DNA of 63,398 bases from Candidatus Woesearchaeota archaeon (GTDB taxonomy: Archaea; Nanobdellota; Nanobdellia; Woesearchaeales; UBA10216), in the NCBI GenBank assembly GCA_016188155.1, contig JACPIH010000002.1, positions 1-63,398 on the forward strand. Reading direction: 5' to 3'. The first letter of the stretch is position 1, and each line of letters opens with the position of its first letter. Positions 1,217-28,047 of this stretch are shown here, piece by piece. The notes under the pieces are model-generated. The model was given only the letters and a program-made list of their open reading frames with translations, ran no database searches and was not told the DNA's origin. Position numbers and translations under genes: made by a program.

Positions 1217-1518
1217 GTGCAAATCAGTTACGCCGATTGCACAGGTCGGCAGTGGCCGACCGTGCAATCCTGCCGATGCAGGATTTGCACACAGCATCGG
1301 CAACAGCCGATGCGTATAGGCGGCGTAACCGCCTATATTCCGCATAGCGGAATTGTGTCCAGTGGCTTCTGAAGGCGTTTTTGCGGCTTCTTGTGAATAA
1401 AATGCTGAAAAACTTGCGGCTGACGTTAAAAGAATTTCGGAATTTTAGTGGCACTGGTCACTGGACAATACCACGTAGGGTATTTAAGCCAGAAGGCTGC
1501 ATAAACCGGTTATGCAGC
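1217..1518. repeat. Intergenic array of perfect GC-rich hairpins (composite palindromic repeat element)
   Basis: Stems at 1235-1269 (15 bp, one bulge), 1294-1313 (8 bp), 1315-1337 (9 bp), 1337-1353 (7 bp) and 1496-1518 (9 bp). Long-range pairings 1217-1225/1282-1290 and 1356-1364/1459-1467. Confidence 0.85.
1354..1421. repeat. ~68-bp dispersed direct repeat, copy 1
   Basis: tgtgtccagtggcttctgaaggcgtttttg... aligns with 6799-6866 tgtgtcaagtggcttcttcaggcgtttttg... Confidence 0.75.
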
Positions 1519-23149: not shown

Positions 23150-23229
23150 AGAATATCAAGCAGGCGGATTAAACAGGTTGTTATTAAGCTTTTTTGTTTT
23201 TTTGAAAAGAACAAGTGGGGACGCTGGGA

Positions 23230-23375
23230 CTTTCACAGCCCTTTTGTTCGCTGATGCTCACAAAAGCCCAAGACGCCTTTGAGGGCGTCTGGGCACAGTC
23301 GTCAGCTGACGACTTGTGCGCTGGCGGAAAAACGTTTTCCGTCAACGCTTTTTTCGCGCACGAAAAAAGGGTTGG
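23230..23375 (-). other. 146-nt non-canonical tRNA intron in the T loop (59/60) with a strict bulge-helix-bulge
   Basis: Central helix U54U55C56A57/UGAA, 3-nt bulges AA|C and AG|U, and outer helix CA(A)CCC/GGG(C)UG. The interior consists of five hairpins. Confidence 0.88.
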
Positions 23376-23396
23376 TTTGAACCCAGATCCGAGGCT

Positions 23397-23453
23397 TTCT
23401 TCTTATGGGTAAGTCATCGCCTTCGGTTTGCCGTTGGCTCAGTTCTCCAATCA
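23397..23453 (-). ncRNA. 57-nt canonical-position tRNA-Trp intron carrying a box D / box C-like kink-turn and a C34 guide
   Basis: UGAUUGGAGAA-CUGA-GCC-AA-CGG-CAAA-CCG-AA-GGC-GAUGA. The fifth nucleotide upstream of CUGA (G at 23447) pairs with C34. Confidence 0.65.
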
Positions 23454-23517
23454 CTGGAGGCCCCCATAATGCCGGGTTATACTACGTCCCCTTGAGTTTT
23501 CCAGCGCCACCACAGCA

Positions 23518-23525
23518 TATTTAAA
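23518..23525 (-). promoter_or_regulatory. TATA box of the tRNA-Trp gene
   Basis: TTTAAATA on the minus strand, 26 nt upstream of tRNA position 1. Confidence 0.7.
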
Positions 23526-23574: not shown

Positions 23575-24723
23575 ATGAACAAAAGATTCTTTGAAGCAGT
23601 TGCTACGCTAACCGGCACGACAATAGGAGCCGGTGTTCTTGGCATACCTTACGTTGTGGCAAAATCCGGCCTGGCCATAGGGCTGCTGCACGTTATAATA
23701 ATAGGCGTAGCTGTTATGCTTGTTAATCTGATGCTTGGGGAAGTGGTGCTAAGGACAAAAGGTAACCACCAGCTAACAGGGTATGCGGAGAAGTACCTTG
23801 GAAAGGCAGGCAAGAGCGTAATGACCCTGTCCATGGTGGCGGGCATATATGGGGCATTAATCGCCTACATTATAGGCACAGGCATATCACTTAATGCTGC
23901 ACTGCCGCAGCTACCTCCCCTGTATGGAAGCATAATATTCTTTGCTATAGCAGCAGCCATTGTCTACATCGGGCTTAAGGCAGTTGAGAAATCAGAGCTG
24001 CTACTGGCGTTCTTTACGGTTATGTTAATCACTATTATAATAGTGGCTGCGCTGGCATCTGACAAGTTCTCAGCTGCAAACTTCACAAAAACAAGCATAC
24101 AAAATATGTTCCTGCCATACGGCGTTGTGCTGTTCGCATTTTTGGGAGCGGTTGCAGTGCCTGAGATGAAGGAAGAGCTAGGAAACGGCAAAGGCAGAAA
24201 GCTGCTGAAAAAGGCGATAATAATCGGAGGCATTGTGCCGATAGCGCTGTATGCGCTATTTGCTGTCGCCATTGTGGGAATAAGCGGCGTTTCAACAAGC
24301 CAGATAGCAACAACAGACCTGGGCAGTAGGCTTGGCGAGCTGATGGTAATAATGGCAAATGCCTTTGCGGTTCTGGCAATGAGCACATCATTCATAGCTC
24401 TTGGCCTGGCACTAAAAGAAATGTACCAGTACGACTACAAGCTCGGCAAAAAAACAGCGTGGGCACTCACATGCATAATTCCAATAACCGCATTCCTGCT
24501 TGGGGCCAAGGGATTCATAGCCGTGCTTGGAATAGCAGGGGCAATTGCTGGAGGAACAGAGGGAATCCTGCTTGTCAGAATGCACGCTGCCGCTGCAAAA
24601 AGGAAAAAAAGCGAACTCAAGCCGGAATACTCAATCAACGGCAAGCGGATTCTATCAATTGCACTCGCCCTGATGTTCCTGCTTGGAATAACATATGCTG
24701 TGCTAAAGCTTATTAGAGGCTAG
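23575..24723 (+). CDS. Aromatic amino acid (Trp/Tyr) permease family transporter
   Basis: LTGTTIGAGVLGIPY, LPYGVVLFAFLG..AVPE and STSFIALG motifs; about 11 TM segments. Confidence 0.85.
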   Translation: MNKRFFEAVATLTGTTIGAGVLGIPYVVAKSGLAIGLLHVIIIGVAVMLVNLMLGEVVLRTKGNHQLTGYAEKYLGKAGKSVMTLSMVAGIYGALIAYIIGTGISLNAALPQLPPLYGSIIFFAIAAAIVYIGLKAVEKSELLLAFFTVMLITIIIVAALASDKFSAANFTKTSIQNMFLPYGVVLFAFLGAVAVPEMKEELGNGKGRKLLKKAIIIGGIVPIALYALFAVAIVGISGVSTSQIATTDLGSRLGELMVIMANAFAVLAMSTSFIALGLALKEMYQYDYKLGKKTAWALTCIIPITAFLLGAKGFIAVLGIAGAIAGGTEGILLVRMHAAAAKRKKSELKPEYSINGKRILSIALALMFLLGITYAVLKLIRG

Positions 24724-27967: not shown

Positions 27968-28047
27968 TGACCTTTTTAAGAACCCAAGTCGCCTCCTGCG
28001 ACTGGGCCCAATCGACAGATGTCGATTTGGGAAAGGTCAATCAAAAA
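27968..28047. repeat. Palindromic element: TGACCTTT...AAAGGTCAATCAAAAA shell enclosing two GC-rich hairpins
   Basis: tgacctttt-taagaa-[cccaagtcgc ctcct gcgactggg][cccaatcgac agat gtcgatttggg]-aaaggtca-atcaaaaa. Confidence 0.85.

Follow-up and report, generated by a model that had tools for sequence, protein, structure and literature searches.

The locus on the minus strand at positions 23216-23491 of the window (the whole stretch of DNA that was analysed, 63,398 nucleotides long) raised the question of whether DNA to which standard gene finders are blind encodes a working tRNA-Trp(CCA), and of how a tRNA interrupted twice, the second time within its T loop, would be matured. The sequence-only reading had proposed three exons assembling into a 73-nt cloverleaf with perfect acceptor and T stems and A73, introns of 57 nt at 37/38 and of 146 nt at 59/60, and a TATA box 26 nt upstream, and had supposed that standard annotation misses the gene. 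This description held in every particular: the coordinates of the exons and the positions and lengths of the introns were exact (Table 1), the TATA box was found where it had been placed and was conserved in the congeners, and both ARAGORN and the Rfam models were blind to the unspliced locus. We consider it highly probable that this is a working and apparently the sole tRNA-Trp(CCA) gene of the genome under study (G000), with two BHB introns, the first carrying a guide and the second inflated by repeats.

Table 1. Features of the tRNA-Trp(CCA) locus in the order of transcription, followed by the other 59/60 introns of the G000 genome. Positions are those of the window.
Feature	Positions	Strand	Length	Description
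TATA box	23518..23525	-		TTTAAATA; 26 nt between box and G1
Exon 1	23454..23491	-	38 nt	GGGGACGTAGTATAACCCGGCATTATGGGGGCCTCCAG; positions 1-37 with 17a; acceptor 5' strand, D arm, anticodon stem 5' strand, CUCCAG
Intron 1	23397..23453	-	57 nt	Canonical 37/38 site
Guide and D' box	23439..23450	-		UUGGAGAA, then D' box CUGA; read from sequence
C' box	23414..23418	-		GAUGA; read from sequences
Exon 2	23376..23396	-	21 nt	AGCCTCGGATCTGGGTTCAAA; positions 38-59; anticodon stem 3' strand, 4-nt variable loop, T stem 5' strand, UUCAAA
Intron 2 (59/60 intron of tRNA-Trp)	23230..23375	-	146 nt	T-loop position 59/60
Hairpin 1	23348..23369	-		CUUUUUUCG-UGCG-CGAAAAAAG; contains a U6 run; folds
Hairpin 2	23319..23347	-		CGUUGACGGAAAACGUUUUUCCGCCAGCG; folds
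Palindromic double-hairpin repeat	23267..23318	.		Two head-to-head hairpins, nested in intron 2
Hairpin 5	23241..23266	-		Module CUUUUGUGAGC..GCGAACAAAAG; ~11 loci in the genome
Exon 3	23216..23229	-	14 nt	TCCCAGCGTCCCCA; positions 60-73; U60, T stem 3' strand, acceptor 3' strand, ends in discriminator A73
T-rich trailer	23205..23214	-		UUGUUCUUUU; directly read
tRNA-Tyr 59/60 intron			63 nt	G000
tRNA-His 59/60 intron			100 nt	G000
tRNA-Pro(UGG) 59/60 intron			114 nt	G000
tRNA-Val(CAC) 59/60 intron			55 nt	G000
59/60 introns of four class-II or Ile-like genes			17-29 nt	G000

Joined in silico, the three exons were called by ARAGORN as a 73-nt tRNA-Trp(CCA), and its acceptor and T stems, of 7 and 5 bp, were perfect. 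U8, A14, G18G19, U33, G53, TTC, A58 and C61 were all present in the spliced tRNA, as was discriminator A73; the CCA end was not encoded in the exons. The archaeal/eukaryal TrpRS identity set consists of G1:C72 and discriminator A73, and these elements, together with the CCA anticodon, were all found in the spliced tRNA; G1:C72 and A73 were invariant in 16 of 16 distinct tRNA-Trp sequences. Unspliced, the locus gave no ARAGORN call and no tRNA match with the Rfam models, either at the gathering score or at E<=10. Rfam matches to wcaG and to a snoRNA at the unspliced locus (E>=1) were rejected as chance. The gene is missed by standard finders because two protein-spliced introns interrupt the tRNA.

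The upstream box 'CATTTAAATA' was kept at tRNA-Trp in all the congeneric loci. At the other end of the gene, the T-rich trailer is likely to be the transcription stop. The tRNA-Trp genes of the relatives end with T5-T8 at the trailer position, so oligo-T termination seems to be in use.

The locus was sought by DNA search in 60 related genomes and was present in 9 of 10 congeners; the homologue set comprised 19 loci, which gave 16 distinct sequences for the analysis of covariation. All 19 were tRNA-Trp(CCA) by ARAGORN after the equivalent in-silico splicing, their exons were conserved and their intron 1 site was filled. Exon 1 was 83-97% identical in the 9 congeners, and the changes in its acceptor strand were matched by exon 3. 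The T-loop site varied. G001, G002 and G007 carried no 59/60 intron and read CTGGGTTCAAATCCCAG / CAGGGTTCAAATCCCTG, that is, exon 2 and exon 3 joined; their uninterrupted T arms were CTGGGTTCAAATCCCAGCATCCCCA or the covarying CAGGG...CCCTG form, and exon 3 of the G000 gene was the uninterrupted T arm and acceptor of G001, save for one compensated change (C6:G67 to U6:A67). The six other congeners had a 59/60 intron which differed in sequence from that of G000 at the identical junction (32 nt in G006 and G008, 33 nt in G004, 42 nt in G003, 52 nt in G005 and 102 nt in G010). A further D-loop intron of 31-39 nt was found in the tRNA-Trp of six species, so that the genes of G005, G006 and G008 contained three introns, the published maximum per archaeal tRNA gene (PMC3239211). 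Outside the genus, G022 (another genus of the same family) had an 87-nt intron at 59/60, G013 and G020 (other genera) had a 30-36-nt intron at ~53/54, and the tRNA-Trp of six other-genus relatives had the 37/38 intron alone.

Covariation of the cloverleaf was pronounced. Among the 16 distinct homologues, 10 of 21 stem pairs were changed on both sides and 96.7% of the cells were paired; the two stems that reach across the introns, acceptor and T, were 100% paired, with 3 covarying pairs each. None of 500 shuffles reached the observed value, and slid controls gave at most 2 covarying pairs. The neighbourhood was conserved too: a gene of the Trp/Tyr-permease family lay upstream, and on the downstream side a conserved AAGCTTAATAA box was followed by a DUF192 gene; since both flanks were syntenic, a chimera at this place was excluded.

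The splice junctions were scanned for BHB motifs, defined by an outer helix, a central helix of 4 bp and bulges of 3 nt, each cleaved behind its second nucleotide; the known pairing of position 32 with the intron nucleotide third from the end served as the anchor. Intron 2 presented a strict hBHBh' motif with cuts exactly at 59|60. Its central helix H was formed by UUCA (54-57) and UGAA (intron nucleotides 141-144), with 4 of 4 Watson-Crick pairs; the bulges were A58-A59|C and A-G|U60, the outer helix h was the T stem itself (5 bp) and h' comprised 5 of 6 pairs, continuing into a U/A run. Seven strict candidates were obtained from ~40,000 junction pairs in the 276-nt precursor, and the 59/60 candidate was the sole one of the seven with a 5-bp outer helix. 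The same junction had a strict BHB in G000, G006, G008, G010 and G022, and relaxed versions in G003, G004 and G005.

Intron 1 was different. Its central helix (CUCC/GAAG) had 3 of 4 pairs, with a C34.A mismatch kept as C.A or C.U in the congeners; the outer helix, which is the anticodon stem, and both 3-nt bulges could be drawn, and no h' helix abutting the intron 1 bulge was found. The strict scan detected no BHB for intron 1 in G000 or the congeners and none for the D-loop introns of the relatives, so both kinds of intron were classed as relaxed motifs. The sequence-only reading had appealed to lineages with relaxed splicing endonucleases as the setting for introns of this kind. The strict hBHBh' at 59/60 means that no relaxed endonuclease is needed for the T-loop intron; for intron 1 and for the D-loop introns of the relatives, with their relaxed motifs, the appeal may still apply. 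The minimum free energy fold of the whole precursor recovered neither the cloverleaf nor the BHB motifs, and a fold constrained to cloverleaf plus BHB lay 10.5 kcal/mol above the unconstrained minimum; this gap was held to be uninformative because the BHB is a protein-recognised motif.

The splicing endonuclease of G000 was encoded by a single ORF of 198 aa (C28:41987-42580), in which both Pfam EndA domains were recognised along with the motifs RIY, DHA and STKK (the Tyr/His/Lys triad). Candidatus Woesearchaeota (DPANN) MAGs, for the most part from groundwater, supplied its close relatives. Among solved structures the nearest was that of the alpha subunit, the catalytic one, from Nanoarchaeum equitans (3IEY_A, E=4e-37). 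The NEQ (L3) and ASL/CSL loops of EndA have been described (PMC3488258). The NEQ-type loop, a 6-residue basic insert around the catalytic His, was absent from the G000 protein, which in this region had the same length as the alpha4 EndA of M. jannaschii; the ASL-equivalent region showed a one-residue difference and a Lys aligned with K161 of ARMAN-2, a likeness too slight for the specificity of the enzyme to be deduced from it. No paralogue or beta subunit was found in G000 by tblastn, and no second PF01974 match above the cut-off was found in the 10 congeners, all of these being draft genomes. The question of the type of EndA, which the sequence-only reading had posed, was thus answered by one alpha-type subunit with no NEQ-type insert and no credible paralogue in G000 or its congeners; with its single catalytic gene, its triad and the lack of a beta paralogue in these drafts, the enzyme appears to be of the alpha4 type, whose subunit typically has ~180 aa. 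By the published paradigm a single alpha-type EndA without the NEQ insert prefers strict motifs, and this counts against intron 1. Genes for RtcB, fibrillarin and TrpRS were all present in G000.

These elements suggest the following course of maturation. The TATA promoter would give a precursor of ~280 nt, in which EndA would cut two BHB motifs, the relaxed one at 37/38 and the strict one at 59/60; RtcB would join the three exons, CCA would be added and TrpRS would charge the product. The cleavage and ligation steps are predicted here from the junction motifs and from the gene content of the genome. Intron 1 would keep a single K-turn and the guide for C34 methylation. Intron 2 would belong to a family of T-loop introns present in many tRNA genes of the genus, in which splicing constrains the two ends only, and five hairpin modules, among them the palindromic double-hairpin repeat, would have swollen its interior to 146 nt. 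Such modules would be tolerated because the whole of intron 2 is excised.

The guide in intron 1 pairs with C32-A36, and its GGAG part with C32-C35, so placed that C34 lies opposite the fifth nucleotide upstream of CUGA. Box C/D RNAs direct 2'-O-methylation to the target nucleotide that pairs with the fifth guide position ahead of box D or D'; the intron 1 guide would accordingly be expected, from its pairing, to direct 2'-O-methylation of C34. The spacing of the guide was conserved in the relatives, and the same register was found in G018 and G020 despite different spacer sequences. The D' box CUGA and the C' box GAUGA formed a conserved K-turn-type pair and were linked by a GCC/GGC stem which covaried as GUC/GAC and GCU/AGC in the relatives. 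Terminal boxes C and D were not recognisable in intron 1 (5' end UGAUUG, 3' end AAGAAGAA), Rfam gave no C/D match at intron 1, and intron 1 held no guide for position 39, which is a G. With no terminal C/D boxes and no position-39 guide, intron 1 is at best half a C/D RNA.

The intron of tRNA-Trp is known to carry a box C/D guide for C34 and U39 (PMC4090602). In the Haloferax volcanii tRNA-Trp(CCA) intron, as outlined in the passages cited, this guide serves Cm34 and Um39 (Clouet d'Orval 2001, Singh 2004, in PMC4090602). Intron 1 is a homologue of the euryarchaeal tRNA-Trp intron. So far as those passages describe the latter, the two share the tRNA, the 37/38 site and a comparable length (57 nt against a median of 65), as well as the CUGA/GAUGA K-turn pair and the position of C34 opposite the fifth nucleotide upstream of D'; set against the Haloferax intron as described there, the intron studied here has no recognisable terminal C/D box, no position-39 guide and a mismatch at C34 in the BHB central helix.

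Intron 2 had company in its own genome. A genome-wide regex scan for 59/60 introns was noisy (107 matches); 9 matches were kept, each confirmed by ARAGORN after in-silico splicing, which makes nine G000 tRNA genes (Trp and at least eight others) with a strict BHB intron at 59/60 (Table 1). The frame CAGCCC...GCCCTGGGGGAAAA(C)G..GGCTACGAAAG was common to the tRNA-Val, tRNA-Tyr and tRNA-His introns of G000 and to the tRNA-Trp intron of G010, and a second 3' frame was common to tRNA-Trp and tRNA-Pro(UGG) of G000 and to tRNA-Val of G008. The last of these, the 59/60 intron of G008 tRNA-Val, was 206 nt long and contained two double hairpins and a strict BHB; intron 2 of tRNA-Trp is therefore the longest 59/60 intron of G000, not of the genus. 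The sequence-only reading had called 146 nt unusually long for a T-loop intron. This is right with respect to archaeal tRNA introns in general, for which a 2014 review gives 11-129 nt and medians of 12-25 nt (PMC4090602), but locally the length is not extreme, given the 206-nt intron in the tRNA-Val of a congener.

A broader proposal can be made tentatively, and we rate it as falling a little short of an even chance: that the 59/60 site of this genus is home to a family of BHB introns, modular in build and spreading horizontally, whose ends fit the universal T loop, whose interiors serve as landing pads for double hairpins, giving introns of 100-206 nt, and which is gained and lost between species. 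The fit to the T loop would lie in the pairing of the intron-end YGAA-AG against T54-R57, and the frames shared by Val, Tyr and His of G000 and by Trp of G010 would be members of the family in different tRNA genes.

In the fold of intron 2 (-65.9 kcal/mol), the inner BHB helix closed a set of five hairpins. Copies related to hairpin 2 were found at C19:1673-1697 and C15:56-71. Pattern matches to the palindromic double hairpin numbered 73 and 43 strand-wise across the genome and were mostly adjacent head-to-head pairs; one copy lay within the window at 27983-28031, others were situated in intergenic DNA, beside tRNA genes and inside other tRNA introns, and a near-identical copy adjoined a tRNA gene in G010. 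The tops of the double-hairpin stems covaried between copies. Most loci of the module that forms hairpin 5 fell within tRNA introns or adjacent to them (Val, Leu, Pro, Gln, Ala), in either orientation. The 146-nt length of intron 2 is due to these nested hairpin repeats, which may be mobile. No box C/D signals were seen in intron 2. The modules resemble the Rickettsia palindromic elements, short palindromic hairpins scattered over a small genome and tolerated inside functional sequences; they differ from them in that the host site here is a spliced tRNA intron, from which the insert is removed at the RNA level.

An interior of this kind might owe its presence to a function of its own, the excised intron, probably circular, persisting as a stable RNA which acts as a protein scaffold, as a source of small RNAs or as a checkpoint in tRNA-Trp maturation. 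The strength of the five-hairpin fold, stems that covary between copies where decay would have eroded them, and the concentration of the hairpin 5 module in and beside tRNA introns all point that way, and such a role would be compatible with the main explanation. We nevertheless consider it unlikely: some congeners do without the intron altogether or have 32-nt versions without any module, the same double hairpins are also intergenic, and the modules occur in both orientations relative to their host tRNA, which favours a palindrome at the DNA level over a function at the RNA level.

Repeats with copies outside genes could equally be read as damage, with hairpin repeats having killed the T loop of tRNA-Trp and left a pseudogene here, and a working gene residing in the ~11% of the genome that was not assembled. 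The G000 assembly (1.08 Mb in 41 contigs) is indeed 88.7% complete, and the RNA-like strand of intron 2 contains T6, T5 and T4 runs, oligo-T tracts which might serve as archaeal terminators within the precursor and so stop transcription in the insert; they weigh against the main explanation as well. This account is very improbable, because a strict BHB placed precisely at 59/60 delimits the insert, the 5-bp T stem is intact, a closing helix is present, and the exons match those of G006 and G008 exactly, with no sign of decay. At least eight other G000 tRNA genes carry such introns, including those of the single-copy isoacceptors Tyr and His. Every relative has one syntenic tRNA-Trp and no second copy. 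The sequence-only reading had made the need to remove both introns depend on there being no other tRNA-Trp in the genome, and none was found in the 88.7%-complete assembly: none of the 20 tRNAs given by the Rfam tRNA model was a Trp-like match at another locus, and neither ARAGORN with introns of up to 200 nt nor blastn-short with the mature sequence returned a second gene.

That the 146-nt block is a repeat-mediated chimera of metagenome assembly is scarcely credible, for although it holds genome-wide repeats at which assemblers can mis-join, nine congeneric assemblies, each from an independent sample, show both flanks and the three exons in the same order, six of those nine also have an insert at the exact junction, the BHB arises from pairing between the two ends of the block and of these ends with the T loop, which a random mis-join would not produce, and the locus lies on a 143 kb contig.

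The layout of this gene has precedents in archaea, where introns at 59/60 and 53/54 are established, as are genes with as many as three introns (PMC3239211). The closest is ARMAN-2, also a DPANN archaeon, in which a protein-spliced 59/60 intron hides a gene from standard finders; its tRNA-Pro(GGG) likewise shows the strict hBHBh' form, and its 53/54 site is also used in the relatives G013 and G020 (PMC3239211). The two systems differ in that the 59/60 intron of the ARMAN-2 pre-tRNA-Cys, tested in vitro, has 13 nt against the repeat-filled 146 nt here, and in that the ARMAN-2 EndA is a three-unit epsilon2 enzyme with the ASL loop, whereas one 198-aa alpha subunit was found here.

In the Thermoproteales, according to the passages cited (Sugahara et al. 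2008; Fujishima et al. 2010; PMC4033280, PMC4090602), a tRNA gene can hold as many as three introns, located at canonical as well as non-canonical sites, intron sequences that resemble one another recur at the same position in different tRNA genes (PMC4033280), and the presence and absence of introns turns over fast between close relatives (PMC4033280, PMC4090602), all of which resembles the present case. The phylum (DPANN, not TACK) and the EndA architecture are different, the introns described here are much longer and modular, and nested palindromic repeats are not mentioned for Thermoproteales introns in the cited portions of that literature. Many disrupted tRNA genes have been reported from DPANN genomes, including Woesearchaeota, and the incomplete predicted tRNA sets of some DPANN and Asgard genomes have been attributed to disrupted genes that went unidentified (Kaneta et al. 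2018, PMC5829648); the locus described here is one such disrupted tRNA gene. Its layout is thus already known in archaea, and what is less ordinary is the size of the T-loop intron, its modular repeats and the series, within one genus, from an empty site to 146 nt.

For the organism, the finding restores an essential gene, apparently the sole tRNA for the UGG codon, which routine annotation would report as missing. For archaeal tRNA introns more widely, it indicates that a non-canonical position need imply neither relaxation of the motif nor a special kind of endonuclease: a strict BHB bounds the 59/60 intron described here. Within the genus, the T-loop site of tRNA-Trp forms a natural series (empty, 32, 102 and 146 nt) which is suited to the study of intron gain, intron loss and inflation by repeats.

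Besides tRNA-Trp(CCA), eight further tRNA genes of the genome under study carried an intron with a strict bulge-helix-bulge (BHB) motif at position 59/60 of the T loop, and intron frames were common to several of them. Without prior splicing of the genome sequence, ARAGORN called none of the Tyr, His, Pro(UGG) and Val(CAC) genes; Rfam gave zero matches at the tRNA-Tyr, His and Pro(UGG) loci, and only a sub-threshold match at that of tRNA-Val(CAC). The tRNA-Val gene of the congener G008 (contig C15:17200-17700, minus strand) harbored a 59/60 intron of 206 nt, longer than intron 2 of tRNA-Trp; it contained two double-hairpin elements, and its BHB was strict.

Features in the genome under study (C-numbers, contigs; repeat, the palindromic repeat nested in intron 2 of tRNA-Trp)
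Feature	Location	Strand	Description
tRNA-Tyr 59/60 intron	C9:2366-2428		strict BHB
tRNA-His 59/60 intron	C32:9207-9306		strict BHB
tRNA-Pro(UGG) 59/60 intron	C34:24912-25025		strict BHB
tRNA-Val(CAC) 59/60 intron	C37:46946-47000		strict BHB
59/60 introns of four class-II or Ile-like tRNA genes	C14:14315-14343, C38:13488-13504, C40:7705-7729, C40:2046-2067		strict BHB
Trp/Tyr-permease-family transporter gene	window 23575-24723	+	divergent from tRNA-Trp; PF03222, E=3e-33
Repeat copies, double- or single-hairpin	window 27983-28031 and 1240-1264		same contig as tRNA-Trp, intergenic
Repeat copy, double- or single-hairpin	C36:123682-123729		same contig as tRNA-Trp, intergenic
RtcB insert, 32 nt	C15:3814-3845, outside the window	−	frame-shifting; strict BHB

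The 5' ends of many tRNA introns in this genome consisted of CCCUUUUU(U), an oligo-U tract (window 23363-23368, minus strand, among them); such tracts are normally an archaeal termination signal. On C19 (1560-1800, plus strand), GCGGGTTCAAA was followed by CAGCCCTTTTT and by hairpin modules like those in intron 2 of tRNA-Trp. This region is a candidate for one more disrupted tRNA; its cloverleaf could not be closed, and it may therefore hold several introns.

The pairing of tRNA-Trp with a Trp/Tyr-permease-family gene was also found in other genera (G013 and G015), in tandem orientation there, and its retention suggests a conserved tryptophan-related neighborhood.

The gene for RtcB, the tRNA-splicing ligase, was itself interrupted. 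The BHB of its insert showed a fully paired central helix (AAGG/CCTT, 4/4) and inner helix (6/6), and in-silico deletion of the insert regained ...MPDAHEGYGFPIGGV..., with a Tyr codon spanning the junction. Among the congeners, the gene was uninterrupted in G009, split at the same site in G002 and G005, and in three pieces in G004 and G008; in G006 it carried an insert, about 1.4 kb long and in frame, that resembles an intein. G007 and G010 each gave RtcB matches on two contigs, with the N-terminal 50-63 residues encoded apart from the remainder. The two coding parts may belong to a split gene or be separated by a large insert; a break in the assembly could also account for the arrangement. 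In the genome under study, the RtcB mRNA apparently depends on a splicing pathway whose last step is RtcB itself.
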